From Candidatus Magasanikbacteria bacterium GW2011_GWA2_56_11 (lineage in GTDB: Bacteria; Patescibacteriota; Patescibacteriia; Magasanikbacterales; UBA922): a stretch of 64,000 nucleotides of DNA. The DNA is taken from positions 14,043-78,042 of the forward strand of contig LCRX01000002.1 in the NCBI GenBank assembly GCA_001004885.1. Direction: 5' to 3'. The notes under the pieces were generated by a model that saw only the letters and a program-made list of their open reading frames with translations, had not been told where the DNA came from and did not search any database. Position numbers and translations under genes: made by a program. Below are positions 287 to 57,520 of the stretch, piece by piece; positions within the stretch are counted from its first letter, which is position 1; each line of letters begins with the position of its first letter.

Positions 287-2347
287 TTACTCTGCCAGCA
301 ATCCGCTCCTAACCTTCGCATACGTATCTTTTGTGCCGCTGCCCAGGGAGCCGGTAACGGCTTCTAGATTGTCAACCAAAGATGCCAACCTGGCCGCGCT
401 CCCAGAGTATCCTTTGACGTTCCTGACTGCCTTGGCGAGCTGTCGCGCCATGTCTGTCTGCCGTTCTGCCGGAAGCTGGAGCATGACCCCGGTTAGGTGC
501 TCGAGGATCAGGCCTTTCCACAGCTTAAGTTTATCCTGCCCGTAGAAGCTCGAATCGGAAAAGCAGAGGCGGGACATGTCTTCGGCAACCGAGTCCAGTT
601 GTTGGCGGGCAGCGCGCAGAGATTCAATCCGGTCTCCGTGTGTTTTCCTCAAGGAGGCGGTCGCATTGTCTTCTGGCGCCGGCAGTTCTTCGTCGGCCGC
701 CTTATCAGCTCCGTCCGGCTGCCGGTCCAATTTGACCGGTATTTCGGTCTTTGCTGACACCGAAGGACGATAATTGGCCCGCGCCTGGTCCAGGGCAGCC
801 CGGCCTTGCGCACTGACATCGCGAGTATCTTTAATTCTGTAATCGGCCTCTACTGTGGGCGCTTCGGCGTGAGTAGCATCGTCCATCACTGCTCGGGCCG
901 TATTTATCGCCGCGGCAGTCTGCCTTCCAACAGTGTCTAACATGGCCTGTGCCTCGGCCAGGCCAGCCTGATTTTTCTGGCCGTCACTCTGAAGGCGCTT
1001 GGATCGAGGATCATCCAGCTCTACGGCTTTTCCTGGTTTGGCCTTCGCCGCTCCGCCCGCGGTAGCGTTCTCATTGGCGGCGGCGCGTTTCGCGCGCGGG
1101 TCTTCCAGGTCTAGGCCTTTCCCCGGCCTAGCGTTTTTGGCTCCTCCGGCCAGAGTCTGTTCACTAACGGCGGCCCGGCTGGCACGGGGATCTTCGAGCT
1201 CGATGCTTTCGCCCGGTGTGGCCTGGCTTGCGCCATGGCCAGCCATTTTTTTGGCGGTAACGCCCGGTGGGCCATCCAGACCTGGGCGCGGTTCGGCCGG
1301 GATGACAAACCGATATTTTTTGCCGCCGCTCGCCGTTGCCCTTTCATCCAGTCCGCGCGGTCTGCGATCTTCCTCGGCTTCGGGCGCGCGCGGCCCGGTG
1401 GGCTGGGTACGGTCGACTGGGCGGCTTAAGTCGATACCTAGTTCAACCGTTGTTTCGTCTGTGTCCGCAAACGGAACGTAGATTTCCTCGCCATTTGGCC
1501 CTGGCTCGACAGCCGCCGGCGTGTTTGTCGCCGCTGGTCGTGTCTCCACTGTCTCGTCGGAAAGCCGAACCGGGATGGCAGGTTCGCTTTCGAGCGCTGC
1601 TTTCAACCCGGCTGCCCCAGAGGCGGCGGCCAAGGCCGAACCGACTACCAGGGCCGGCTTAACACCGGATTTGGCCGGCTGGGCCGCCGGAGCGGAATCG
1701 CCGAAAACTTGGCGGCGGAAGTCTAAATAGGCCTTATAGATTTGGTAAGTTTCGCTGGTTTTGACTTGCTTTGTCTGGCCGAATAGTTTGCCCAGCAATC
1801 CGACGACAGGTTTGCCGTCAGCGTCAAATTTAATTTTCGGAAATTGGACCGCCAAAAGCCCTAATTCGCGGTCTACGATGGCAGTCAGGGCGGCATGTAA
1901 CTTGCCGTGGTCGCCGGGGACGAAGCCGGAGGCGATAAGTTTTTCCAAAAAATATTTGTCGCCCATGATCTGGGTACGCTCTGATTCGCCGAGAGTGGAC
2001 TGAGCCAGAAGTTCGGATAGATACGCCTTGACCTGTCCCGGGCGCATCCGTTCTTGGATTTCGGTAATCTGCCGGCGCGCTTCCCGCACCGAAGTCGGCT
2101 CTGTATCCGACGCCACGCCGCGGGCTTTCAGTTTTTCGTATATGGCTATGTTTTCTTGCAGGCTGGCGATGGTTCGCTCCGGTTTGGCTCCGGACTGGTT
2201 TTTTTCCGGCGGCGCAACAGTTAGTCCGGCTCGTTCTGTTTCAACTTCCCGGAGTTCGTCAACGGTTTTTTTTAGCTCTTTCTCCGGGTCCACTGTCCGG
2301 TTTTCGCCGCCTGCGCCGGGGCGGCGTATAAGGTCTTGGCGTGCCAT
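287..2347 (-). CDS. Hypothetical Ala/Glu/Arg-rich protein with three tandem ~32-aa repeats (…LEDPRAxRAAxxExxxAGGAKxAxPGK…)
   Basis: 686-aa ORF; internal tandem repeats visible at protein and DNA level (~96-bp units around 960-1300); no signal peptide; no recognisable catalytic motif. Confidence 0.55.
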   Translation of the reverse strand: MARQDLIRRPGAGGENRTVDPEKELKKTVDELREVETERAGLTVAPPEKNQSGAKPERTIASLQENIAIYEKLKARGVASDTEPTSVREARRQITEIQERMRPGQVKAYLSELLAQSTLGESERTQIMGDKYFLEKLIASGFVPGDHGKLHAALTAIVDRELGLLAVQFPKIKFDADGKPVVGLLGKLFGQTKQVKTSETYQIYKAYLDFRRQVFGDSAPAAQPAKSGVKPALVVGSALAAASGAAGLKAALESEPAIPVRLSDETVETRPAATNTPAAVEPGPNGEEIYVPFADTDETTVELGIDLSRPVDRTQPTGPRAPEAEEDRRPRGLDERATASGGKKYRFVIPAEPRPGLDGPPGVTAKKMAGHGASQATPGESIELEDPRASRAAVSEQTLAGGAKNARPGKGLDLEDPRAKRAAANENATAGGAAKAKPGKAVELDDPRSKRLQSDGQKNQAGLAEAQAMLDTVGRQTAAAINTARAVMDDATHAEAPTVEADYRIKDTRDVSAQGRAALDQARANYRPSVSAKTEIPVKLDRQPDGADKAADEELPAPEDNATASLRKTHGDRIESLRAARQQLDSVAEDMSRLCFSDSSFYGQDKLKLWKGLILEHLTGVMLQLPAERQTDMARQLAKAVRNVKGYSGSAARLASLVDNLEAVTGSLGSGTKDTYAKVRSGLLAE
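960..1300 (-). repeat. Coding tandem repeats (~96 bp x3) inside the 686-aa ORF
   Basis: Repeated DNA blocks, e.g. ggcctttccccggcctagcgtttttggctcctccggcc variants, giving the repeated LEDPRAKRAA peptide. Confidence 0.6.
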
Positions 2348-32615: not shown

Positions 32616-33767
32616 CTAGGGCGTGGCGCTCGGCTGGGCGTCGGCCGGCTTCTCGGGCGTGACCGCGTCGGGGTTAGCCGGCGTCTCGGGGGCCTGCTTG
32701 GACTTCGGGTCCTCGCAGCCGAGAGCGGCGATCTGGTCAGGGGAGTAGCCCGTGGTGTCCGGGCTGAGCGGGTCATTGCCGTCGTCGAGGTAGCCCTGGA
32801 TGGCATTGCACAGCCTCTGGCCGTACTTCGTCTTCTTGTCCTCGGGCGCCGCCTTCCACTCCTGGTACTGCTCCTGCCACGCCTGTCGCGTGGCCTTGAA
32901 CAGCTTGGCCGCGAGCTCTTCCGGTCTGCCCTGATCGAGGACCTCGACTCGCCGGTCGCTCAGGTAGCGGATCGCCTCCCGGACCACCCAGTCGCGTCCC
33001 TGGCAGGTGGACCCGGGGAGGCAGAGGAACTCGCTCCCCAGATCACCCTTGTACAGGGCCAGCTCGACGAGGGCCGTGGCCAGGGCGTCCTTCAGGTCGT
33101 CCCACTGGGACGCCACGGTGTTGACAGTGTACTTGTGGTGGGTAGTTGGGAAGGCCTCCGCGCGGTCCCCGCTGTCCTCCAGAAACCGGTCGAACACCTC
33201 GCCGCAGCTGTCCCTCGACTCGAGGTACTGCATGGTCCGGGCCTCCAGCCCATCGAGCCCGAGGAGACGGCTGTACTCCTTCGCCGTCCCGGTCAGGGTG
33301 GAACCCTTCATGCAGTCCGTGAGCGTGAGGTCGTCAGCGTTCGGGGTCGGCTTCTTGTCGGCCTTCCGATCCCGCTCGATGCCGTCCCGCGCTCCCGCGG
33401 TGTACTGCCGAAGCTGGTCGGCGGCCTTCGCGCTATCGAGGCCGGCGGGATCCTCTAGGCAGAGCTTGTAGCTCTGGTTGACCTCCGGCAGGTTGACGGG
33501 CAGGCAGTCGCCGGTCTTGGTCGCCAGCCGAGCGAGGATCGACTCGACCAGCTTGTCGAGGTTGGTCTTGGCCCCGGAGGGGCTCCGCATCTCTACGCGA
33601 CGCCTCAACTCCAGGGTGATGTTCACCCCTCCGGTGAGCTCCGTGGGCAGCTCTGCGGTGGAGACCACCATGTGCGTGTCCTCCTGCTGGGGCCGTTGGG
33701 TTTTTTGCTCCTTGGGGCACCCCCCGAGGAGACCGGCGATGACCGCGAGGATCAAGGTCTTGTGCAT
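32616..33767 (-). CDS. Hypothetical lipoprotein
   Basis: Signal peptide with lipobox LLGGC; Cys-rich; very high GC3. Confidence 0.6.
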   Translation of the reverse strand: MHKTLILAVIAGLLGGCPKEQKTQRPQQEDTHMVVSTAELPTELTGGVNITLELRRRVEMRSPSGAKTNLDKLVESILARLATKTGDCLPVNLPEVNQSYKLCLEDPAGLDSAKAADQLRQYTAGARDGIERDRKADKKPTPNADDLTLTDCMKGSTLTGTAKEYSRLLGLDGLEARTMQYLESRDSCGEVFDRFLEDSGDRAEAFPTTHHKYTVNTVASQWDDLKDALATALVELALYKGDLGSEFLCLPGSTCQGRDWVVREAIRYLSDRRVEVLDQGRPEELAAKLFKATRQAWQEQYQEWKAAPEDKKTKYGQRLCNAIQGYLDDGNDPLSPDTTGYSPDQIAALGCEDPKSKQAPETPANPDAVTPEKPADAQPSATP

Positions 33768-42955: not shown

Positions 42956-42985
42956 AATCCCGCCCCTGCCAGGGCGGGGTTTATT
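42956..42985 (+). terminator. Rho-independent terminator after tsf
   Basis: aatcccgcccctgccagggcggggtttatt. Confidence 0.7.
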
Positions 42986-43074
42986 AACATAGAAAGTCTT
43001 TTACGGCTGCCCTCGACATGGTATACTTGGCCTAGTTTTTCTCTTCGCAATCAGGGTGGATTGCATTTTTCTCT

Positions 43075-46000
43075 ATGAGCCGTCCGCGCCGAACAATTTT
43101 TCATCGTTTGACCGCCTGGCTCGTGCTGTTGACCACCCTGTGGTATTTCACTTTGGGCTTGCTTCCTTTTGGCCTCACCGACCCCACAGTACCGATAGCC
43201 AAAGCCGCCGCTGTTACCTGGGTGGGGCTAGCCACGGGCAACTGGGAAGACGGGGCGAATTGGAACACCGGCGTGGTCCCGACGGCAAGTGACGATGTTA
43301 CGATATCGAGCAGCACCGGCAATATTTCCGTTACTCTTTCCGCCGGCCAGACAGCTAATTTCGCTTCGCTGACTATTGGCGGGGATTCGACTTATTATGT
43401 TACCACGACGCTCGTCGGCAATATCGGAACCGCCGTGAGCAGCACGATCGCCGGCCGGGGAGTTTTGGTTCAGAAAAATGCCGTCGTCCAGACGCTAACA
43501 GGGGATTTGACTATCCAAAGCGGAGGGATTTTGACGCATGAGGCGAACACGACGGCGCAGTCGTACGAGGTAGATTGGAGCGTGGCTAATTTGAATGTTC
43601 AGGCCGGAGGTAAAATTGATGTTGACGGCCAGGGATATACCGGGACAAATGATACCGGCTCATCCGGCAATGGTCCGGGTGGCGGTTACAAATCTGTCAG
43701 CCTCGGCACCGGCGGCGCTCACGCGGGCAACGGCGGCGGACCATCAAACAGCGAAGACGGGCCAGCCGGGTACTGCGATATCACTAATCCAGTCTCCATG
43801 GGTTCGGGCGGCGGCGTTGGCGGCTCCGGATTCGGCGGTTCGGGCGGCGGCGTGATTATTCTCAACGTTTCCGGGACAATCACCGTTAACGGGACGATTA
43901 CCGCCGACGGCGCAACTCCCATTTCCGGTACCAGCGTTGGTGGCGGCGCCGGCGGCGGCGTAAAGATCGTGGCTGGTGACATTGCCGGCACCCCGCAAAG
44001 TTTCACGATTACCGGAGGTGGCGGCCGAAGCACTTATGGCGGCGGCGGGGGCGGAGGTTGCGCCTTTCTGTCTTACACTACTGCCAATAGTATTTTCCCG
44101 ACCAGCACTATTACGATGAATGGCGGCGCCGGCGTATCGGGACAGCGCGGCGGCGGCGGCGTAGTGTATGTAAAACAGACCGGCACCAATGGCGATATTT
44201 ATTCGGTCAATACTGCGCCGGGAGCTCCTTCTGCCCAGGGGGCCACCTCCATCACGGCCGATTCCTTGACGGTGATGGTTTCCTCAACTTACCAGATTGC
44301 CTCGGGCAAAACTTTGGTGCTTAAAAATAGCAGCCCTTTTTCCGGCGGAGACGCATCGGGTACTCTGCGGGTAGATAGCGGCGGTACGTTCACTCCCACG
44401 TCAACCGCCGATTTTACCGTTGCCAGTACCACTCTGGAGATTCACCAGGGTTCTACTGTTACCTCGGCCTCTTCTCTTAACGTGGTTGTTGACTATGGGG
44501 GTGTCCTCAGCCAAGGACGGTATGTGACAACCAGCCCTGCTTTGGGATTGAATACTCTTTATATATTAAACGGCGGTGTTCTCACCCATGCAGCCAATAC
44601 GACGACGCAGAGCCACGTGGTAAATTTGAGCGCGGCTTCTTCTACCGTGGCGGCCGGCGGATTTATTAACCTGGACGGCAGGGGATACGCCGGAGTCAGC
44701 GGCGGAAACGGCAACGGACCGGGCGGCGGCGCGGTAAAAGTATCCAGCACCGGCGGCGGCGGCGGCGCCCATGCCGGCGCCGGCGGAAACGGTTTTAACG
44801 GTTCGGCTGGCGGCGCGGCCTACTGCGTTACAAGTTCTCCGGGTACGATTGGGTCGAGCGGCGGCTATGGCGGAAACGGCGCCAGTCCTGCCGGCGGAGG
44901 CCTGGCCGTGTTAGCTATTACTAATACGCTTACCGTAAATGGTACTATCACGGCGGATGGTGGCGCCGCGCCCGGATCTCAGTCGACTGGTTCTGGCGGC
45001 GGCGGCGTAAAAATCACTGCCGGTGTTATCGCCGGTTCGCCGCAGAGTTTCACCGCTACCGGATCGGCCGGCAGGGGTTCGAGCGGCGGCGGAGGCGGTG
45101 GCTGTATTTATATTGGTTACTCAACCAGCAACAGTATCTCATCCGCGACCGTGTCCGGCGGTGCCGCCGGCGGCAGCGGCGGCTCCACCGCCGGAGGCTC
45201 CGGTGAGTTTAATGCCGCGCAGACCAACCGCGCGCCATCGGCTCCGGCCACTCTCTACGCCCATGCTACCGACGCCCAGTCCGGTACTGCCAACCCGAGC
45301 TGGGTTAGCAGTATTACGCCGGCATTTTCTGCTATTTATGCCGACGACGATGTGGGCGACATCGCGAATAAAGCTCGCATACAAATAGGCACTGACTCTA
45401 ACTTCAGTTCCATTACGCACTGGGATTCCGGGTCATCCGGCACTTCTATCAGCAACTGCACTGCCGGACAGCGCTGTCAAAATATCGTCTACGGTTCTTT
45501 TGGGTCCGCGCCTACCCAGAACTTGGCTCTTAACGATGATGCCGACGAGGCCAGCCAGACGACTTACTACTGGCGCATTAAATTTTTTGACGATAGCAGC
45601 ACCGAGGGCGCTTTCTCCGCCGAGTCGGCGTCGTTTACTTTGCTCGACGCGCCCAATGAACCGACCAATTTGGCCACCTCCTCCCTTAGTATCACAGGTG
45701 TTACCTTGTCCTGGACAGATAATTCGTCACTCGAAAACAACTACGTTTTGCAGGTTTCCGAGGACGGCGGGGGCACTTATTCGACCGCTTCGACCACCGT
45801 GGCCAACACCACGTCCGTGACTACCAGCACACTGTCGGCCGATACCCGCTATGTTTATCGCGTACACGGAGCCAACACGGCCGGCGACTCCGATGCCATC
45901 GCCACAGCGGCTTTTTACACTTTGGCCAATGCGCCGGGAACACCGACGCCGGGTACGGTTACTGCCGCCACAATCCCTATTACCATCTCCGTAAACGGCA

Positions 46001-49000
46001 ACCCCACGAATACCCTGTACGCCGTCTTTGATACCATCTCTGACACTTACGTGGGAGCCGACGGCTCGGCTTCGGCCGGGCCGGTATTCCAAACTACGTC
46101 TACCTGGGGCAACAATTTTGCCCGCAGCGGGCTTACCCCCAACACCCAACATGCGTTCGCCGTGGTTGCGCGCAACGGAGACGGCGTAAGCACGGCTACC
46201 TCCACGGCCAGCGCCGCCGTCTACACACTGGCCGCCACTCCGTCGTCGGCGAGCGCCAGCGCCGACAGCGCCAGCCAGATCACGGTTTCCTGGAACGCCA
46301 ACTCCAACGCGCCGGGTACTAGCTATTACGCGGAGGATGCCGGTTCGCCGACGCGCGCTTCGGGCTGGATTACCGCCACCTCATACACATTTAGCGGGTT
46401 GAGCGCCGGTACAGCCTATACGTTTCGGGTCAAGGCGCGTAATGACGAGGGCACGCAAACAGATTTTGGTTCATCGGTAACGGCGACTACTTTGCCGTCC
46501 GGCGGATCTCCTTCTCCCACTCCTCCGGCACCGCCGCCGCCGCCATCGCCGACCCCCTATATTTCGGCAGAAGAAATAATCGAGTTTGCCCCTACCGGGC
46601 TCATTAAAATTATTTCTGTTTCCGGCGAAACCGAAGTTGATGTCCTTGACGGAGCGGGCATAGCGGCGCCCCATGTCGTGAATGGTTATAGCCAGGTGAA
46701 AGGCGTGTCCAGTGATGACGGTATCCTCGACCTGTCATCTCCATTTAGCCTGGATTTTTCTTTTGCCCTCGACAAGACGCCCCTTGATTCAAGTCTGGCC
46801 GGGAAAAAGCGCCGGTTGTTTTCGAAGTACGACGCCTACAATGCCGGGTACAGCACGAATAACGATATCGCGGCCACGAAAGGATTTTGTTTCAGCGCCG
46901 GCACCGGGCAGGTCTGCGATTACCGCAATCCGTTCGTGAAGAGTACCTATGTTTATAATATTGTCTGGTCAGGCAGCACTCTCGATCTCATCGAGAATAA
47001 TAAAAAATTGGATAGCGCCCCGCTGGCGGCTATCCCCAAGAGCCAGCACCCTTTGGCTATTGGCGGTGAATTAGTCCCGTACCAAAATGGCAAGTACGCC
47101 ACTTCGTTTTATCCGTTCACTCTTTATACGCTGCGCCTGAAACAAGATCCCGGACTGCTTATCTACACCAACACGCCCGTAGTCAAGCTTAAAATAGATG
47201 CCACGTATGCGCAGCAGCTGGCCCTAAAGGAGAGCCATGGCTCTCCGTACACCGATTTTTCGGAAGTGTCGTTCAACCCGGTGGTTTCCGAGCTCACTTG
47301 GCAGCTGGCCGGAGAGGACGGTAAAAAATGCGTTAATGCCCGGTTTAAGGGAATTGAAGGCAAAAACCTTACGTATGATACCTATGCTTGCGTCATTCTG
47401 GATCGTGTCAAGCCTTCCGCCGACTTTTTGATCGACGCCGGGCCGGCCAATCCAACGGCCGCCGCCCCGCGCATTTACGGCGTAAGCGAACCCAAGGCCG
47501 TGATTGTCATCACCAAAAAGAGCAAACAAGCCGCGGCCGCTTTGGCCTCAGCGGCGGAAAAGGCGACTTTTCATCTCGCGGCTGAACCGGCAGCCTATAC
47601 CACCATGGCCGATAACACCGGTGCTTGGAGTTACACCTTTTCCGCCCCGTTTAACCCCGGCGACCATATTATTACTGTTCAGGCCACTGATCCGGCCGGC
47701 AATACCTCGGACCCGGTGAGTCAAGAGCTGTCCGTAACTACGCCTCTCCCGTCCGAACCGGATCCGGAGGACACTAAACCCGATGAAATCGAAGATAAAA
47801 AAGAAGACACTAAACCGTCTGACCAAGACCAAGAAGACACTAAAACCGATGAGACTGAGAAGGGAGATGAGGTAAAAAAGGACGATACGGCGGTGGCCGA
47901 TGCCGAAGAAGAAAAGACGACCAACCCTGACCAGGCGGACCAGCCGGTACTGAGTCTGCCAGGAGAAGCCGGGCCGGGTTTGGCACCAATCGCCCGGCGA
48001 CCGGATCGGGCGGCTGGCAAGGAGGAGTTGGCACCGATGGCAGAGGTGCCAGAATCGGAACAAGCCGCGGCCGCGGCCGAAATGATCGCTCCTGCATTTG
48101 GCCCCTCCCTTTTGTCTCAGGTATGGAATAAGTGGCGCGCGCTGAAAGATAATCCCTTTCTCGAGAAAATCAACGAAACGGCCGCGGCCCCGGCCATCGC
48201 CCTCTTGGGTGCTGCCAATCTGGCTGTTGGCGTTCAAATTCCGCGTCTTTTAGCCCTGCTGCGGTATCTGTTCAGCCAGCCGGCGCTCCTTTTGCGCCGA
48301 CGCAAGTACAAAGGCTGGGGCACGGTCTACAATGCCTACAGCAAGCTGCCCGTGGATCTGGCCACGATTCGTCTCATCAGCGATGAAACAAATAAAGTGG
48401 TTAGCTCCCAGGTAACGGATTTTTACGGCCGCTATTTTATCTCGGCGGAAAACGGCCGTTTTCGCCTGGAGGTCATTAAACCAGGATTCACGGGTTTCAG
48501 CGCGCTGTTGAGGGAACAGACCGAGGACGCCAAGTACCTCAATCTGTACCACGGAGAGGCTTTTTATCCGCCGGAGTCCGGGAGCGCCGTTACCTACAGT
48601 ATCCCGCTCGATCCGGAGACGATCATCAAGCCCACGACCCAGATTCTCAAAGACCATTCCCGGTCGGTGTTGCAACAGGCGTTTACTTTGGTGGGATTGG
48701 GCGCCAGTTTGGTCTCGTTTGCCGTCTCACCCACTCCAGGCGTGGGGTTTCTCGTGGGGCTGCATGTCATTTTTTACTTTTTATTCCATCGTCTGGCGCA
48801 CCGTCGGCTTCCCAGTTCCTGGGGCGTAGTCCGCGATCTGAAGGACAAATCAACGCTGTCGAGAGTGGTTATCCGCGTCTTTGACGCCGCTTACAATAAA
48901 TTGGTCAATACCGCTGTTACCGACAGCCGCGGCCGTTATGCCGTGCTGGTCGGGCCAAGCCGGTATTACGTCATGTACGAAAAAGACGGCTACCACCGGA

Positions 49001-49137
49001 AGCAGTCGCCGACTTTGGACTTTAGCTCAGAAAAGACCGGCGGCCTGGGCGGTATCATCAACCGGTCGGAGATGATGGAAAGGGGGACAGGCTCTCCGGC
49101 GGCGTCGGAATCCGGCGGACCGAATCCAGGGCTTTGA
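43075..49137 (+). CDS. Giant (2020-aa) membrane-anchored surface protein: N-terminal signal/TM, duplicated Gly-rich beta-helix-like module, FN3 domains, Pro-rich and acidic repeat linkers, C-terminal TM segments and two CarboxypepD_reg-like beta-sandwich domains
   Basis: Single uninterrupted ORF; GNWEDGANWNTGVVP…; two ~300-aa paralogous Gly-rich modules; FN3-like LSITGVTLSWTDNS…YVYRVHGAN; PPAPPPPPSP; EDTKPDEIEDKKEDTKPSDQDQEDTK; VVSSQVTDFYGRYFISAENGRFRLEV and RVFDAAYNKLVNTAVTDSRGRYAV. Confidence 0.8.
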   Translation: MSRPRRTIFHRLTAWLVLLTTLWYFTLGLLPFGLTDPTVPIAKAAAVTWVGLATGNWEDGANWNTGVVPTASDDVTISSSTGNISVTLSAGQTANFASLTIGGDSTYYVTTTLVGNIGTAVSSTIAGRGVLVQKNAVVQTLTGDLTIQSGGILTHEANTTAQSYEVDWSVANLNVQAGGKIDVDGQGYTGTNDTGSSGNGPGGGYKSVSLGTGGAHAGNGGGPSNSEDGPAGYCDITNPVSMGSGGGVGGSGFGGSGGGVIILNVSGTITVNGTITADGATPISGTSVGGGAGGGVKIVAGDIAGTPQSFTITGGGGRSTYGGGGGGGCAFLSYTTANSIFPTSTITMNGGAGVSGQRGGGGVVYVKQTGTNGDIYSVNTAPGAPSAQGATSITADSLTVMVSSTYQIASGKTLVLKNSSPFSGGDASGTLRVDSGGTFTPTSTADFTVASTTLEIHQGSTVTSASSLNVVVDYGGVLSQGRYVTTSPALGLNTLYILNGGVLTHAANTTTQSHVVNLSAASSTVAAGGFINLDGRGYAGVSGGNGNGPGGGAVKVSSTGGGGGAHAGAGGNGFNGSAGGAAYCVTSSPGTIGSSGGYGGNGASPAGGGLAVLAITNTLTVNGTITADGGAAPGSQSTGSGGGGVKITAGVIAGSPQSFTATGSAGRGSSGGGGGGCIYIGYSTSNSISSATVSGGAAGGSGGSTAGGSGEFNAAQTNRAPSAPATLYAHATDAQSGTANPSWVSSITPAFSAIYADDDVGDIANKARIQIGTDSNFSSITHWDSGSSGTSISNCTAGQRCQNIVYGSFGSAPTQNLALNDDADEASQTTYYWRIKFFDDSSTEGAFSAESASFTLLDAPNEPTNLATSSLSITGVTLSWTDNSSLENNYVLQVSEDGGGTYSTASTTVANTTSVTTSTLSADTRYVYRVHGANTAGDSDAIATAAFYTLANAPGTPTPGTVTAATIPITISVNGNPTNTLYAVFDTISDTYVGADGSASAGPVFQTTSTWGNNFARSGLTPNTQHAFAVVARNGDGVSTATSTASAAVYTLAATPSSASASADSASQITVSWNANSNAPGTSYYAEDAGSPTRASGWITATSYTFSGLSAGTAYTFRVKARNDEGTQTDFGSSVTATTLPSGGSPSPTPPAPPPPPSPTPYISAEEIIEFAPTGLIKIISVSGETEVDVLDGAGIAAPHVVNGYSQVKGVSSDDGILDLSSPFSLDFSFALDKTPLDSSLAGKKRRLFSKYDAYNAGYSTNNDIAATKGFCFSAGTGQVCDYRNPFVKSTYVYNIVWSGSTLDLIENNKKLDSAPLAAIPKSQHPLAIGGELVPYQNGKYATSFYPFTLYTLRLKQDPGLLIYTNTPVVKLKIDATYAQQLALKESHGSPYTDFSEVSFNPVVSELTWQLAGEDGKKCVNARFKGIEGKNLTYDTYACVILDRVKPSADFLIDAGPANPTAAAPRIYGVSEPKAVIVITKKSKQAAAALASAAEKATFHLAAEPAAYTTMADNTGAWSYTFSAPFNPGDHIITVQATDPAGNTSDPVSQELSVTTPLPSEPDPEDTKPDEIEDKKEDTKPSDQDQEDTKTDETEKGDEVKKDDTAVADAEEEKTTNPDQADQPVLSLPGEAGPGLAPIARRPDRAAGKEELAPMAEVPESEQAAAAAEMIAPAFGPSLLSQVWNKWRALKDNPFLEKINETAAAPAIALLGAANLAVGVQIPRLLALLRYLFSQPALLLRRRKYKGWGTVYNAYSKLPVDLATIRLISDETNKVVSSQVTDFYGRYFISAENGRFRLEVIKPGFTGFSALLREQTEDAKYLNLYHGEAFYPPESGSAVTYSIPLDPETIIKPTTQILKDHSRSVLQQAFTLVGLGASLVSFAVSPTPGVGFLVGLHVIFYFLFHRLAHRRLPSSWGVVRDLKDKSTLSRVVIRVFDAAYNKLVNTAVTDSRGRYAVLVGPSRYYVMYEKDGYHRKQSPTLDFSSEKTGGLGGIINRSEMMERGTGSPAASESGGPNPGL

Positions 49138-54290: not shown

Positions 54291-55865
54291 ATGGCTGCAC
54301 ACCCGCAGGGACAAGTACAGCGCATCCGTCCGACTCTTCTTATCATTCTCGATGGCTTCGGTTTAGCCCCGGCCGAGAATCCGGGCAACGCCATCACTCC
54401 CCAAACCGCGCCCCATATTTTTGGCTGCCTGGAGCGCTATCCGTCTACCATCCTCAAAGCCCACGGTCGCGATGTCGGGCTGTTTGCGTCGCAGGAGGGC
54501 AATTCCGAGGCCGGACACTTCAATATCGGCGCCGGCCGGGTGGTGGAACAGGATTTGGTCCGGATTTCCCGGGCCATCAAAGATGGAACTTTTTTCAAGA
54601 ATGAGGCTTTCGCGCAAGCGGTTTATCACGTCGAAAAATATCAGGCGGCGGTCCATGTGATGGGGCTGTTGAGCGGCGGGCAAAGCGCGCACGCTCACCC
54701 GAAGCACCTATACGCCCTTCTGGAATATTTGCGTCGTCAGAAAGTAAAAAAAATCTATTTGCATCTGTTTACCGACGGGCGCGATTCGCCGCCGCATGCG
54801 GCCATCCGGCATCTGCGCGAGCTGCGCAAAGAGATGAAAAACGGCGAGCGTATCGCCACCATTATGGGACGATTCTACGCCATGGACCGCAATAAGTCCT
54901 GGGAGCGCACCGGGCGGGCGTATGCCGCCATGGTACACGGTAAGGGAGAATGCGGGTCTGCGAGCGCCGAAGAGGCGCTGTCGCAGGCGTACAACCGGGG
55001 CGAAACTGACGAATACGTGTTGCCGACGATCGTGTGCGAGAACGGTCAAGGGAGCGCCACAATCCAGGATAATGACGCGATATTTTTTTTCAATGCCCGC
55101 AGCGACCGCGCGCGCCAGATTACCAAGGCCTTCGTCCAGCCTGATTTTGCGAAAAAAAATCCCGGCGCTTTCCGCCGGGAGCGTTGCCCCAAAAACATCC
55201 GTTTTGTGGCCATGACCGACTTTGGACCGGATTTGCCCGGAATTTTCACCGCTTTTCCGAGTCCCGACGTACCGCTGAGTTTGGCCCGGGCAATCGGCGA
55301 GAATTACCGACAGCTGTATATATCGGAAACGGAAAAATACGCTCACGTAACTTATTTTATCAACGGCGGGGACGCCGAGCCGATAAACGGCGAAGCGCGG
55401 GAACTCGTGCGTTCGTCCGGCCATTACTCTTACGCGGCGGCGCCGGAAATGAGCGCGGTGGAATTGACCGCCAGAATCGTCCGGTATCTGCAAGACGGCG
55501 TTTACGATTTTATCACGGTGAATTTTCCCAATGCCGACATGGTCGGGCACACAGGCGACTGGCAGGCAGCCAAACGCGCTGTCCGGGCGGTCGACCGGGC
55601 GGTCCGGCGGCTCACGGACGCGGTGCTCAAATTGAAGGGCCAGGCCGTAATTACCGCCGATCATGGCAATGCCGAAGAAATGATCAACTCCCAAACCGCA
55701 GAGATAATGACCGAGCACACCCGGAATCCCGTGCCGTTTATCGTGGTCCGCCGGAATTTCGCGGCCAAGCTTCGCCCTGGCCGGCTCGCCGACGTGGCGC
55801 CGACGCTGCTTAAGCTCATGGGGGTGGATAAGCCAAAAGAGATGACCGGAAAAGCGTTATTTTAG
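54291..55865 (+). CDS. gpmI: 2,3-bisphosphoglycerate-independent phosphoglycerate mutase (paralogue 1)
   Basis: LIILDGFGLAP, GNSEAGHFNIGAGR (Ser nucleophile retained), DGRDSPP, TADHGN. Confidence 0.88.
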   Translation: MAAHPQGQVQRIRPTLLIILDGFGLAPAENPGNAITPQTAPHIFGCLERYPSTILKAHGRDVGLFASQEGNSEAGHFNIGAGRVVEQDLVRISRAIKDGTFFKNEAFAQAVYHVEKYQAAVHVMGLLSGGQSAHAHPKHLYALLEYLRRQKVKKIYLHLFTDGRDSPPHAAIRHLRELRKEMKNGERIATIMGRFYAMDRNKSWERTGRAYAAMVHGKGECGSASAEEALSQAYNRGETDEYVLPTIVCENGQGSATIQDNDAIFFFNARSDRARQITKAFVQPDFAKKNPGAFRRERCPKNIRFVAMTDFGPDLPGIFTAFPSPDVPLSLARAIGENYRQLYISETEKYAHVTYFINGGDAEPINGEARELVRSSGHYSYAAAPEMSAVELTARIVRYLQDGVYDFITVNFPNADMVGHTGDWQAAKRAVRAVDRAVRRLTDAVLKLKGQAVITADHGNAEEMINSQTAEIMTEHTRNPVPFIVVRRNFAAKLRPGRLADVAPTLLKLMGVDKPKEMTGKALF

Positions 55866-55942: not shown

Positions 55943-57520
55943 ATGTCCCGACCAAAACCATTAGTCCTGGCTATTCTTGACGGCTGGGGAGTCGCCCCGG
56001 AGCACGAGGGCAACGCCATCACCCGGGCCAAGTTGCCGAATTTTGCCCGGTTTATCAAAGATTACCCGGCCATGACTCTTTACGCTTCGGGCACCGAGGT
56101 CGGCTTGTCGTTCGGCGAGATGGGTAATTCCGAAGTCGGCCACTTGAATATCGGCGCCGGACGCGTCTACTACCAGACTTTTCCGCGTATCAATAAATGC
56201 CTGGGGGACGGATCTTTTTTTACCAATAAGGCCTTTTTGTCCGCGGCTGAACACGCGCGGAAGAACAAGTCCGCTTTGCACCTTATCGGTCTGGTCAGCC
56301 CTGGCAATGTCCATGCCAGCGATACGCATCTTTTCGGACTGCTGGAATTTTGCAAACAGCAGAAGTTGAAACAGGTGGCGGTGCACGCTATTTTGGACGG
56401 CCGCGACACGATTTACAACAGCGGCGCGGATTTCATCAAGAAATTGCAGGCGAAAATAAAAGACATCGGCGTGGGCAAAATCGCTTCGCTCTGCGGGAGG
56501 TTCTACGCCATGGACCGCGACAACCGGTGGGACCGGATTGAAAAAGCCTACCGCGCCATGGCGGACGGAGTGGCGGCCGAGTATTTTAAAGATCCGGTCA
56601 AAGCCATTGAGTCCTCGTACGCCAAAGAAATTTATGATGAAGAATTCGTCCCGGTGGTGATAGGCAAAGAAGGCGAGCCGGCGGCCAAGGTGGAGGCCGG
56701 AGACGCCGTCATTTTTTTCAACTTCCGTCCGGATCGCGCGCGCCAGCTCACGCAGGCTTTCGTCCTGCCGAGTTTCGCCAAATTCGACCGGCCGTATATC
56801 AAGGAGCTGCGCTTTGTTACCATGACCGAGTACGAAAAAGAAACGCCGGTGGTCGTCGCCTTTTCGCCGAACGTGGTCGTCAACTGTCTGTCCGAGGCCG
56901 TAAGCCAGGCCGGACTCAGACAGTTTCATATCGCGGAGACCGAAAAATACGCGCATATCACGTTTTTTTTAAACGGCACGATTGAGGATCCGTTTCCGAA
57001 CGAAGAACGCGCCATTATACCTTCGCCAAAAGTTTCTTCTTACGACCAGGCGCCGGAGATGTCGGCCGCGGAGATAACCAGAGAAGTGGTAAAGGCGGTG
57101 GATGAAGAGAAATACGATGTCATAATGCTGAACCTGGCTAATGCCGACATGGTCGGACACACCGGTAACCTTAGGGCGACTGTCAAAGGCGCGGAGGCCG
57201 TAGACAAGAGTCTCGGGCAAATTGCCGAGCACGTGCTGGCCAAAGGCGGAGTCCTGCTTATTACCGCCGATCACGGCAATGGCGAGGAGGTAATTAATCT
57301 TCAAACAGGAGAAAAGGACAAAGAGCACAGCACAAACCCGGTGCCGTTTTTGGTGATCGCCGAGGCGTACCGCGGACAAACGGGCCCGTCCGGCGACCCG
57401 CCTAACGGAGACCTGAGTTTGCTGCACCCGGTCGGCATGCTGGCCGACGTGGCGCCGACGGCGCTCAGCCTGCTTGGCATTCCCCAGCCGCCAGAGATGA
57501 CCGGGCGGGCTTTGATGTAA
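55943..57520 (+). CDS. gpmI: 2,3-bisphosphoglycerate-independent phosphoglycerate mutase (paralogue 2, more canonical)
   Basis: LAILDGWGVAP, GNSEVGHLNIGAGR, DGRDT, TADHGN. Confidence 0.92.
   Translation: MSRPKPLVLAILDGWGVAPEHEGNAITRAKLPNFARFIKDYPAMTLYASGTEVGLSFGEMGNSEVGHLNIGAGRVYYQTFPRINKCLGDGSFFTNKAFLSAAEHARKNKSALHLIGLVSPGNVHASDTHLFGLLEFCKQQKLKQVAVHAILDGRDTIYNSGADFIKKLQAKIKDIGVGKIASLCGRFYAMDRDNRWDRIEKAYRAMADGVAAEYFKDPVKAIESSYAKEIYDEEFVPVVIGKEGEPAAKVEAGDAVIFFNFRPDRARQLTQAFVLPSFAKFDRPYIKELRFVTMTEYEKETPVVVAFSPNVVVNCLSEAVSQAGLRQFHIAETEKYAHITFFLNGTIEDPFPNEERAIIPSPKVSSYDQAPEMSAAEITREVVKAVDEEKYDVIMLNLANADMVGHTGNLRATVKGAEAVDKSLGQIAEHVLAKGGVLLITADHGNGEEVINLQTGEKDKEHSTNPVPFLVIAEAYRGQTGPSGDPPNGDLSLLHPVGMLADVAPTALSLLGIPQPPEMTGRALM

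Follow-up and report, generated by a model that had tools for sequence, protein, structure and literature searches.

A giant putative surface fibril of Candidatus Magasanikbacteria with a glycine-rich solenoid and a C-terminal anchor found across CPR bacteria

Background

The lifestyle of bacteria of the Candidate Phyla Radiation (CPR, or Patescibacteria) is believed to be one of attachment to other cells, and the molecules by which they hold on, beyond type IV pili, are largely unknown. Here we describe a gene encoding a protein of 2020 residues, hereafter the giant protein, in a stretch of 64,000 nucleotides of contig LCRX01000002.1 from Candidatus Magasanikbacteria bacterium GW2011_GWA2_56_11. 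This whole stretch is called the window, and all coordinates count from its first letter. The organism is an ultra-small groundwater bacterium of the candidate phylum Magasanikbacteria, in agreement with an initial annotation made from the sequence alone, which had called giant envelope proteins of this kind typical of episymbiotic or ultra-small bacteria. To our knowledge, no member of the Magasanikbacteria has been cultivated, and no host of theirs is known.

Several described systems provide points of comparison. Autotransporters of type Va, such as Ag43 and TibA, expose an elongated right-handed beta-helix as their distal part. The adhesins SiiE, those of the LapA/MpIBP-type RTX group and the SdrD-type MSCRAMMs use a tandem beta-sandwich stalk to project a ligand-binding region. 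From established knowledge, the archaeal SlaB-type surface-layer (S-layer) stalk proteins are Sec-exported, rich in beta-sandwiches and anchored at the C-terminus in cells without an outer membrane. Within the CPR, the epibiotic growth of a cultivated Saccharibacterium requires envelope proteins with fibronectin type III (FN3), VCBS or dockerin domains (PMC10633639). Among the proteins of that study, SEML1_0890, SEML1_0891 and SEML1_0315 display extracytoplasmic domains of glycan-binding type and were proposed to act in host attachment (PMC10633639).

Architecture of the giant protein and comparison with known systems

The giant protein is encoded by a single gene:

43075..49137, + strand: complete open reading frame (ORF) with an ATG start, 2020 aa plus stop codon, equal to GenBank KKW42944.1 / UniRef100_A0A0G2BBK2

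On balance, and with moderate confidence, we propose that its product is a Sec-exported, C-terminally membrane-anchored, non-enzymatic surface fibril or adhesin of a monoderm CPR bacterium. Four layers would be stacked outward from the membrane. The first would be an anchor of ~320 aa, made up of a transmembrane segment (TM1), an interfacial helix (H2), a beta-sandwich, a TM3/TM4 hairpin and a second sandwich. Above it would lie an acidic disordered tether of ~130 aa, followed by a stalk composed of a Big_13 domain, an Ig-like unit, a beta unit of 16 strands, a Pro hinge, and four units of FN3 type, of which three are FN3 domains proper and one is FN3-like. The distal layer would be a rigid beta-solenoid of ~690 aa built on two paralogous Gly-rich modules. 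This tip would be the ligand-binding part, held tens of nanometres off the cell, and its target may be a polymer or the surface of a host or partner cell. Being multi-pass and bearing folded domains, the anchor would act as a rivet against extraction from the membrane, in a protein that carries no LPXTG sortase signal. Scans against Pfam and NCBIfam detected no enzyme or toxin domains in the giant protein, nor the housekeeping enzyme family whose discovery would have overturned the initial annotation. Given that envelope proteins of comparable kind are essential to the Saccharibacterium (PMC10633639), an attachment role is plausible by analogy; the SEML1 proteins are likened to the giant protein by domain type and by belonging to the CPR.

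By the same kind of analogy, the giant protein may work as giant modular adhesins do, with a beta-helix tip of the Ag43/TibA type on an Ig/FN3 extender of the SiiE/LapA/SdrD type. It is nevertheless a member of none of these families, because the defining secretion or anchoring feature of each is absent. The type Va autotransporters include its best structural matches (7kob, 4q1q, 4kh3 and 7koh, all weak). In contrast to them, it has no C-terminal beta-barrel translocator, its organism has no outer membrane, its anchoring end consists of alpha-helical transmembrane segments and beta-sandwiches, and neither Pfam nor the Protein Data Bank (PDB) contains a sequence related to its Gly-rich modules. 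In place of a 12-strand barrel, its C-terminus holds four helices and two sandwiches, and no autotransporter family was found in Pfam or NCBIfam. Unlike the RTX giants, it has an N-terminal Sec signal rather than a C-terminal signal for type I secretion, and it displays zero GGxGxD motifs and no HemolysinCabind match. An integral-membrane module takes the place of the outer-membrane plug or sortase linkage of the SiiE, LapA and SdrD types, and the sortase motif LP.[TSA][GAN] occurs nowhere in the protein; the Cna-B/SdrD_B-like fold does match its CarboxypepD_reg domains. The Pfam and NCBIfam scans of the giant protein revealed no SLH domain. Membership of the autotransporter, RTX, LPXTG, SLH and toxin families was rejected on the absence of these features. 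A Foldseek comparison with viral predicted structures returned weak and uninformative matches only. The features listed above for SlaB-type proteins would all be shared by the giant protein; in contrast to them, its anchor is multi-pass with two folded domains, and no S-layer family or lattice-forming partner was detected.

A conserved C-terminal anchor

The anchor (aa ~1691-2003) shows the highest conservation within the protein, with 56-70% identity to homologues in its sandwiches against 35-60% in the ectodomains. It is made up of the following features:

48145..48309, + strand: anchor helices TM1 (aa 1700-1719) and H2 (aa 1724-1741), then an RRRKYK cluster; conserved motif LRYLFxQPxLLLRRRKxKxWG
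48310..48639, + strand: CarboxypepD_reg-like beta-sandwich 1, aa 1746-1855 (Pfam scan, AlphaFold2 model, self-comparison)
48640..48810, + strand: helical hairpin of TM3 (aa 1866-1884), SPTPG loop and TM4 (aa 1890-1908), the latter with a highly conserved His (hydrophobicity, AlphaFold2 model, alignment)
48811..49083, + strand: CarboxypepD_reg-like beta-sandwich 2, aa 1913-2003, the segment with the highest conservation (63-70% identical in homologues)
49084..49137, + strand: short variable C-terminal tail and stop codon (alignment)

The initial annotation had placed two to three hydrophobic segments in this region. They are present and number four, at the positions given for TM1, H2, TM3 and TM4. 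It had also predicted two C-terminal carboxypeptidase-regulatory-like domains, and these are borne out by two stretches of CarboxypepD_reg (PF13620) above the cut-off (50 bits against 32.3, E=3.9e-13) in a scan restricted to the C-terminal 345 aa; the family is not listed in the scan of the whole 2020-aa protein. The two domains are paralogous to one another (E ~5e-6).

A profile of the anchor (A3), defining a family with the layout TM1-H2-RRRK-WG-beta-sandwich-TM3/TM4-WG-beta-sandwich, was searched exhaustively against 1.84 billion representative proteins. Its matches numbered 5044 proteins at E<=1e-3; tightening the threshold to E<=1e-10 left 3584, and 1484 protein clusters remained at E<=1e-30. 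The giant protein itself matched with 556 bits, over profile positions 34-369 and aa 1678-2013, and among the matches listed the profile match spans the whole anchor module. Word-indexed homologue searches had returned just 10 proteins for the anchor alone and 21 for the anchor alignment; it was the exhaustive profile search that revealed the family. The C-terminal transmembrane and sandwich region, which the initial annotation did not recognize as such, is one conserved unit common to more than 1400 protein clusters.

The position of the anchor is nearly constant and its passengers are not. Over 131 representatives of 342-3595 aa, the median distance from the end of the anchor to the C-terminus was 5 residues, and the domains that precede it are diverse and of extracellular type, among them fn3, Big_13, Laminin_G_3, TSP_3, FG-GAP, cohesin, beta-propellers and DUF4215. 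All named sources belong to the CPR (Magasanikbacteria, Peregrinibacteria, Parcubacteria, Nealsonbacteria and Saccharibacteria). Signal-peptide proteins of 562-572 aa from Nealsonbacteria and Saccharibacteria end in the anchor module with the identical junction KKKxWGVVYDxFTKQPL, and some genomes have at least two genes with the anchor. As a unit, the anchor is represented by no model in Pfam or NCBIfam, and our literature searches found no description of it. Hence, it appears to be a general and undescribed C-terminal anchor for surface proteins of the CPR.

Some members of the family (P0125, P0126, P0160, P0201, P0226, P0236 and P0260) continue past sandwich 2 with long tails that are of low complexity, charged or Pro-rich. 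The motifs 'PWELQxLQK' and 'AQYGK' recur in the tails of the family and look like short linear interaction motifs.

Topology of the anchor

The distribution of charge offers a clue to the side of the membrane on which the sandwiches lie. Over 28 homologues, the excess of lysine and arginine was +4.2 after H2, +2.6 before TM3 and +1.4 after TM4, these being the flanks that bear the sandwiches, and the short loops VQIP and SPTPG were uncharged. On a simple Hessa-type scale, H2 was the least membrane-like helix (median +8.1, against +2.3 to +4.8 for the others). Under the positive-inside rule, this bias suggests that the ectodomain lies outside, that TM1 runs inward, that H2 rests on the cytoplasmic face and that both sandwiches are inside. 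TM3 and TM4 would then cross out and back between cytoplasmic sandwich 1 and sandwich 2. The carboxypeptidase-regulatory-like domains, which the initial annotation listed as part of a surface protein, may thus be cytoplasmic rather than surface-exposed. CarboxypepD_reg, Cna-B and transthyretin-like folds are normally extracytoplasmic, and the anchor is nearly free of cysteine (0.04 per 100 aa; 138 of 160 anchors have none), which we counted in favour of sandwiches on the outside. Taking these indications together, we lean narrowly towards a cytoplasmic location.

A more far-reaching idea, which we put forward tentatively and hold to be rather doubtful, is that the anchor, with H2 as an amphipathic helix, is an undescribed CPR-wide module whose cytoplasmic sandwiches serve as a mechanical rivet, or as a coupler of extracellular passengers to a conserved intracellular partner. 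If true, hundreds of different passengers (adhesins, lectins, propellers) would be tied to one conserved partner, and the anchor would be a functional counterpart of the sortase/LPXTG or PEP-CTERM systems in bacteria that have neither.

The signal peptide and the glycine-rich tip

The N-terminal part of the protein comprises the following features:

43075..43212, + strand: Sec-type signal peptide or signal anchor, aa 1-46, with an RPRR n-region, an h-region at aa 12-34 (22-residue core) and an AKA-A site
43213..43491, + strand: N-terminal turns capping the beta-solenoid, aa 47-139, with the motif TWxGxxxGxWxxxxNW (AlphaFold2 confidence, pLDDT, of 94-97; homologue consensus)
43492..44229, + strand: Gly-rich module 1, aa 140-385, with a conserved Cys pair 234/329 (self-comparison; no Pfam, NCBIfam or PDB match)
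44230..44541, + strand: solenoid turns between the modules, aa 386-489 (short beta strands in the AlphaFold2 model, pLDDT 82-96)
44542..45279, + strand: Gly-rich module 2, aa 490-735, a paralogue of module 1, with the Cys pair 584/677 (self-comparison)

An N-terminal signal or transmembrane segment had been noted before and is evident as a hydrophobic stretch (aa 12-34) that lies between RPRR and AKAAA. Judging from these residues, the signal peptide would be cleaved between AKA and A, and the AAAxTWxGG junction is conserved in the homologue consensus (A2).

The internal duplication recognized by the initial annotation holds: aa 145-340 and aa 495-688 share 52% identity over 197 aa (E=1e-24, composition-adjusted BLASTP). 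The size then given to the module, ~300 aa, was approximately right, the period of the repeat being 350 aa and its alignable core ~200-250 aa. Compared as DNA, the two copies can be aligned over only 111 nt, at 72% identity. This divergence means that the duplication is ancient, and it rules out a repeat collapsed or duplicated during assembly. The orthologues P0002, P0003, P0006 and P0008 have both copies as well, in colinear order.

An AlphaFold2 model of the tip (aa 40-860, 821 residues, from an alignment of 27 sequences) reached a pLDDT of 84 and a global score (pTM) of 0.77. It displays many short strands, with confident Gly-rich stretches left unassigned by DSSP. A pTM of this level over 821 residues indicates that aa 47-735 are one rigid body, predicted to fold as a single rigid beta-solenoid. 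In a Foldseek search of the PDB the model had no match at E<=1e-3. The best resemblances were to the right-handed beta-helix adhesins Ag43b (7kob, E=3.4e-3), TibA, Ag43, HMW1 and Hbp. The Gly-rich region thus does model as a beta-helix or solenoid, in line with the beta-helical, adhesin-like fold that had been suggested from the sequence, and adhesin passengers are its only resemblances among solved structures, albeit through weak matches.

The Gly-rich module (~246 aa) is widespread. Of the 120 best homologues, 117 contain it, in up to 9 copies per protein, and its carriers include proteins of Verrucomicrobiota, Limisphaerales and Phycisphaerae / Planctomycetota in addition to the CPR. The Cys pair (YCD ... 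GGGC) is specific to the CPR copies; those of Verrucomicrobiota and Planctomycetota have YGD ... GGGR. No family corresponds to the module in NCBIfam or in Pfam (either module at E<=10, 14 copies at E<=1), and a profile of 14 diverse copies matched nothing among PDB sequences except the (G4S) linkers of single-chain antibody fragments (scFv). We also considered the glycine-rich domain of ALK/LTK type (PF12810, polyglycine-II) and rejected it, since it has no support from Pfam or PDB sequences and no ALK/LTK structure was among the Foldseek matches.

The residues invariant over the 14 copies are 18 Gly together with a Tyr, a Pro and a Ser, and no acidic residue or His is conserved. That they are nearly all Gly suggests a structural or binding scaffold and not a catalytic site. 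This observation weighs on an alternative in which the solenoid is a surface-tethered polysaccharide lyase or hydrolase of the parallel beta-helix kind, attacking the cell-wall glycans of the host. PL6 alginate lyases do appear among the Foldseek matches, and a preprint connects cell-wall degradation with giant genes found in other ultra-small bacteria (bioRxiv 10.1101/2023.11.21.568195). However, the PL6 matches have probabilities of 0.01-0.04 and E>0.2, no enzyme family was found in Pfam or NCBIfam, and acidic residues and His are not conserved between the copies, so that we regard this alternative as quite improbable.

Another function for a long filament would be contact-dependent toxin delivery of the CdiA, RHS or polymorphic-toxin type, with an effector presented at the C-terminus. 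Such a role is hinted at by the Phycisphaerae protein P0098, in which a Gly-rich module occurs alongside RHS/DUF6531 domains. However, the giant protein ends in the conserved membrane anchor instead of a variable toxin domain, families of the RHS, PT-VENN or toxin kind were not detected, and gap follows directly downstream, with no small immunity-like gene. Toxin delivery is therefore highly improbable.

Stalk, tether and cysteines

Between the tip and the anchor lie the following features:

45280..45639, + strand: FN3-like / Rha78A_N-like Ig unit, aa 736-855 (FN3 self-match at ~705-855), with the Cys pair 795/801 (low-confidence model, pLDDT 32-67)
45640..46509, + strand: three fibronectin type III domains, aa 856-950, 948-1043 and 1050-1145 (PF00041, PDB sequences, self-comparison)
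46510..46578, + strand: Pro-rich hinge (SPSPTPPAPPPPPSPTPY), with PPAPPPPPSP at aa 1150-1159 (pLDDT below 50)
46579..47544, + strand: all-beta region of unknown family, aa 1169-1490 (AlphaFold2 pLDDT ~90)
47545..47754, + strand: Big_13 bacterial Ig-like domain (PF19077), aa 1491-1560 (29.2 bits in the whole protein and 33.6 in the segment, cut-off 27)
47755..48144, + strand: acidic disordered tether, aa 1561-1690 (pLDDT 28-42), the least conserved region, with ~21% identity

The FN3 repeats reported earlier resolve into three canonical domains and one FN3-like unit. The family fn3 (PF00041) matches with 66.3 bits (cut-off 25, E=2.9e-18) in two stretches, in which self-comparison distinguishes three units, and the PDB sequences matched are FN3 domains of titin, Dscam and DCC. 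In the FN3-like unit, the match to PF25788 (E=3.6e-4 to 1.9e-3) is below the cut-off and the FN3 self-match is weak. The hinge and the acidic EDTKP repeat are also present as had been described, the latter at aa 1565-1591 with EDTKP twice and EDTKT once.

The all-beta region is made up of a unit of ~190 aa with 16 strands, followed by an Ig-like unit of ~115 aa, and has invariant Cys pairs at 1272/1281 and 1419/1439. It has no match in Pfam or among PDB sequences, profile search included. In a Foldseek search with aa 1150-2020, the matches were confined to extender regions, built of tandem Ig/FN3 domains, in SiiE, SdrD and large adhesion proteins (top matches 2yn5, 6xi3 and SdrD). From its sequence pattern, we considered aa 1169-1360 as a ConA-like/Laminin_G_3 lectin (PF13385). 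This assignment was dropped: none of nine homologous segments had a match in Pfam, and an hhalign comparison of the segment profile with P0131, which carries Laminin_G_3, gave a probability of 0.1%.

The ten cysteines of the protein are confined to the ectodomain, with one pair to a domain (234/329, 584/677, 795/801, 1272/1281 and 1419/1439; codons at 43774/44059, 44824/45103, 45457/45475, 46888/46915 and 47329/47389), and homologues conserve them. Such conserved pairs within domains fit disulfide-bonded extracytoplasmic domains. The ectodomains of anchor-bearing relatives have 1.3 Cys per 100 aa, in even number in 77% of cases.

Gene, locus and homologues

The gene is labelled 'hypothetical protein UY92_C0002G0061 [Candidatus Magasanikbacteria bacterium]' in GenBank (KKW42944.1; our record P0271, on a 160-kb contig). 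A giant, Gly-rich and repeat-bearing ORF derived from a metagenome raises the question of whether its assembly is chimeric or its repeats were joined wrongly. The same gene of 6063 nt, with 3 nt differences, is present on an ENA scaffold (L037) from an independent assembly, the module repeats are diverged at the DNA level as described above, and full-length colinear orthologues exist. We therefore give next to no weight to an assembly artefact, a concern that the initial annotation had itself raised: the giant ORF is a real gene without sign of mis-assembly.

It lies among chromosomal housekeeping genes, with DUF3048, prmC, prfA, rpsB and tsf upstream and gap, pgk, a SIMPL protein gene, eno and two tandem iPGM genes downstream. 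Two features precede it:

42959..42979, + strand: terminator-like GC-rich hairpin and T-run behind tsf (8-pair stem, 7 of them GC), which splits the giant gene from the upstream operon
43000..43027, + strand: sigma-70-like promoter candidate, TTTACG-16-TATACT with TG extension, 47 nt before the ATG (by consensus match only, which is no proof of function)

A second sigma-70-like site was found ahead of gap. With the hairpin and these promoter-like sites around it, the giant gene looks like its own transcription unit.

Full-length colinear homologues (P0002, P0003, P0006, P0008 and P0010) share 40-54% identity with the giant protein, and those with a named source all come from Candidatus Magasanikbacteria. 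The orthologue P0003 (Magasanikbacteria, GCA_001784325.1) occupies the equivalent slot, in the order rpsB-tsf-[giant]-gap-pgk-SIMPL-eno. The locus is also found in two further metagenome-assembled genomes (MAGs), L003 (3279..10284, GCA_964522405.1) and L004 (841..9978, GCA_964390625.1), where the giant gene is split into 2-3 overlapping ORFs, with the result that gene callers report just a 'carboxypeptidase regulatory-like' fragment of 325-427 aa. The splitting could reflect frameshifts, assembly errors or true pseudogenes. P0121 and P0128, considered as stand-alone anchor-only genes, turned out to be the C-terminal fragments of the frameshifted or split giant genes at this locus (L003, L004). 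P0127, found immediately downstream of a 2136-aa gene, is probably not a stand-alone anchor-only gene either.

Many MAG records that carry the anchor (L006, L008, L009, L013, L018 and others) are titled 'uncultured Gammaproteobacteria bacterium'. Two records so titled, CAZFTR010000001.1 (= L003/L006) and CAYMID010000008.1 (= L004/L018), show synteny of the Magasanikbacteria type, and the titles on these anchor-carrying records look wrong.

In the main rival of our proposal, the giant protein would be a structural envelope or S-layer-like protein, that is, an anchored stalk-and-canopy subunit of an outer surface layer and not a binder of partner cells. Its position amid translation and glycolysis genes is conserved in several Magasanikbacteria genomes, the giant gene has its own promoter-like site, and conservation is moderate over the full length (40-60%) and not hypervariable. 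A C-terminal membrane anchor with a stalk is also, from established knowledge, the design of monoderm and archaeal S-layer anchors. Nevertheless, neither SLH nor any other S-layer family was found in the Pfam and NCBIfam scans, and a disordered tether of ~130 aa with a Pro hinge would be unusual in lattice subunits. Furthermore, one and the same anchor occurs on many unrelated passengers, with at least two anchor genes in some genomes, which fits a general surface-protein anchor rather than one lattice protein. We consider the S-layer interpretation unlikely overall, if better founded than the enzyme and toxin alternatives.

Several observations weigh against the surface fibril or adhesin that we favour. 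A syntenic, moderately conserved single locus amid housekeeping genes in one Magasanikbacteria clade would suit a structural envelope component equally. The likeness of the tip to adhesin beta-helices is weak (7kob at E=3.4e-3, TM-scores of 0.14-0.27, the rest at E>0.1). The topology of the anchor is ambiguous, with the charge bias placing the sandwiches inside and the type of fold and near-absence of Cys placing them outside. The closest homologue, P0002, lies in a different gene neighbourhood, and a search for conserved neighbours found synteny within one Magasanikbacteria clade only and no partner gene; with synteny so confined, and none for P0002, no partner gene can be proposed.

Other observations on the window concern its surroundings. 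The two iPGM genes are tandem paralogues (iPGM_N + Metalloenzyme; 524 and 525 aa) at 54291..55865 and 55943..57520 (+ strand), and the Magasanikbacteria locus L001 has the two in tandem as well. The ORFs at 287..2347 (- strand, 686 aa) and 32616..33767 (- strand, 383 aa) matched no Pfam family at E<=1e-5, and scanning the window for Rfam families and tRNAs gave no hits. GC skew is slightly negative inside the giant ORF (-0.02 to -0.07 in 44001..48000) and positive nearly everywhere else in the window, which probably reflects the Ala/Thr/Ser/Pro-rich coding composition of the giant ORF.

Conclusions

The giant protein as such is unremarkable: its sequence has been publicly available, under the label of a hypothetical protein, since 2015, and CPR genomes are expected to encode giant surface proteins with FN3 domains. 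It is a well-supported example of the large surface proteins of these bacteria. What is new in its description is a widespread, unannotated Gly-rich solenoid module and, more importantly, a conserved CPR-wide C-terminal anchor. These are two reusable building blocks, of which neither the module nor the anchor as a unit has a match in the Pfam, NCBIfam and PDB libraries searched.

The possibly cytoplasmic beta-sandwich domains of the anchor are unexpected. If they do lie in the cytoplasm, they would provide a linkage between inside and outside of a kind not described for bacterial adhesins. With the anchor profile, a single search would be enough to inventory the anchored surface proteins in any given CPR genome. 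The anchor is also a defined target for localisation, topology and pull-down work in the few cultivable CPR bacteria, among which the Saccharibacteria carry it.

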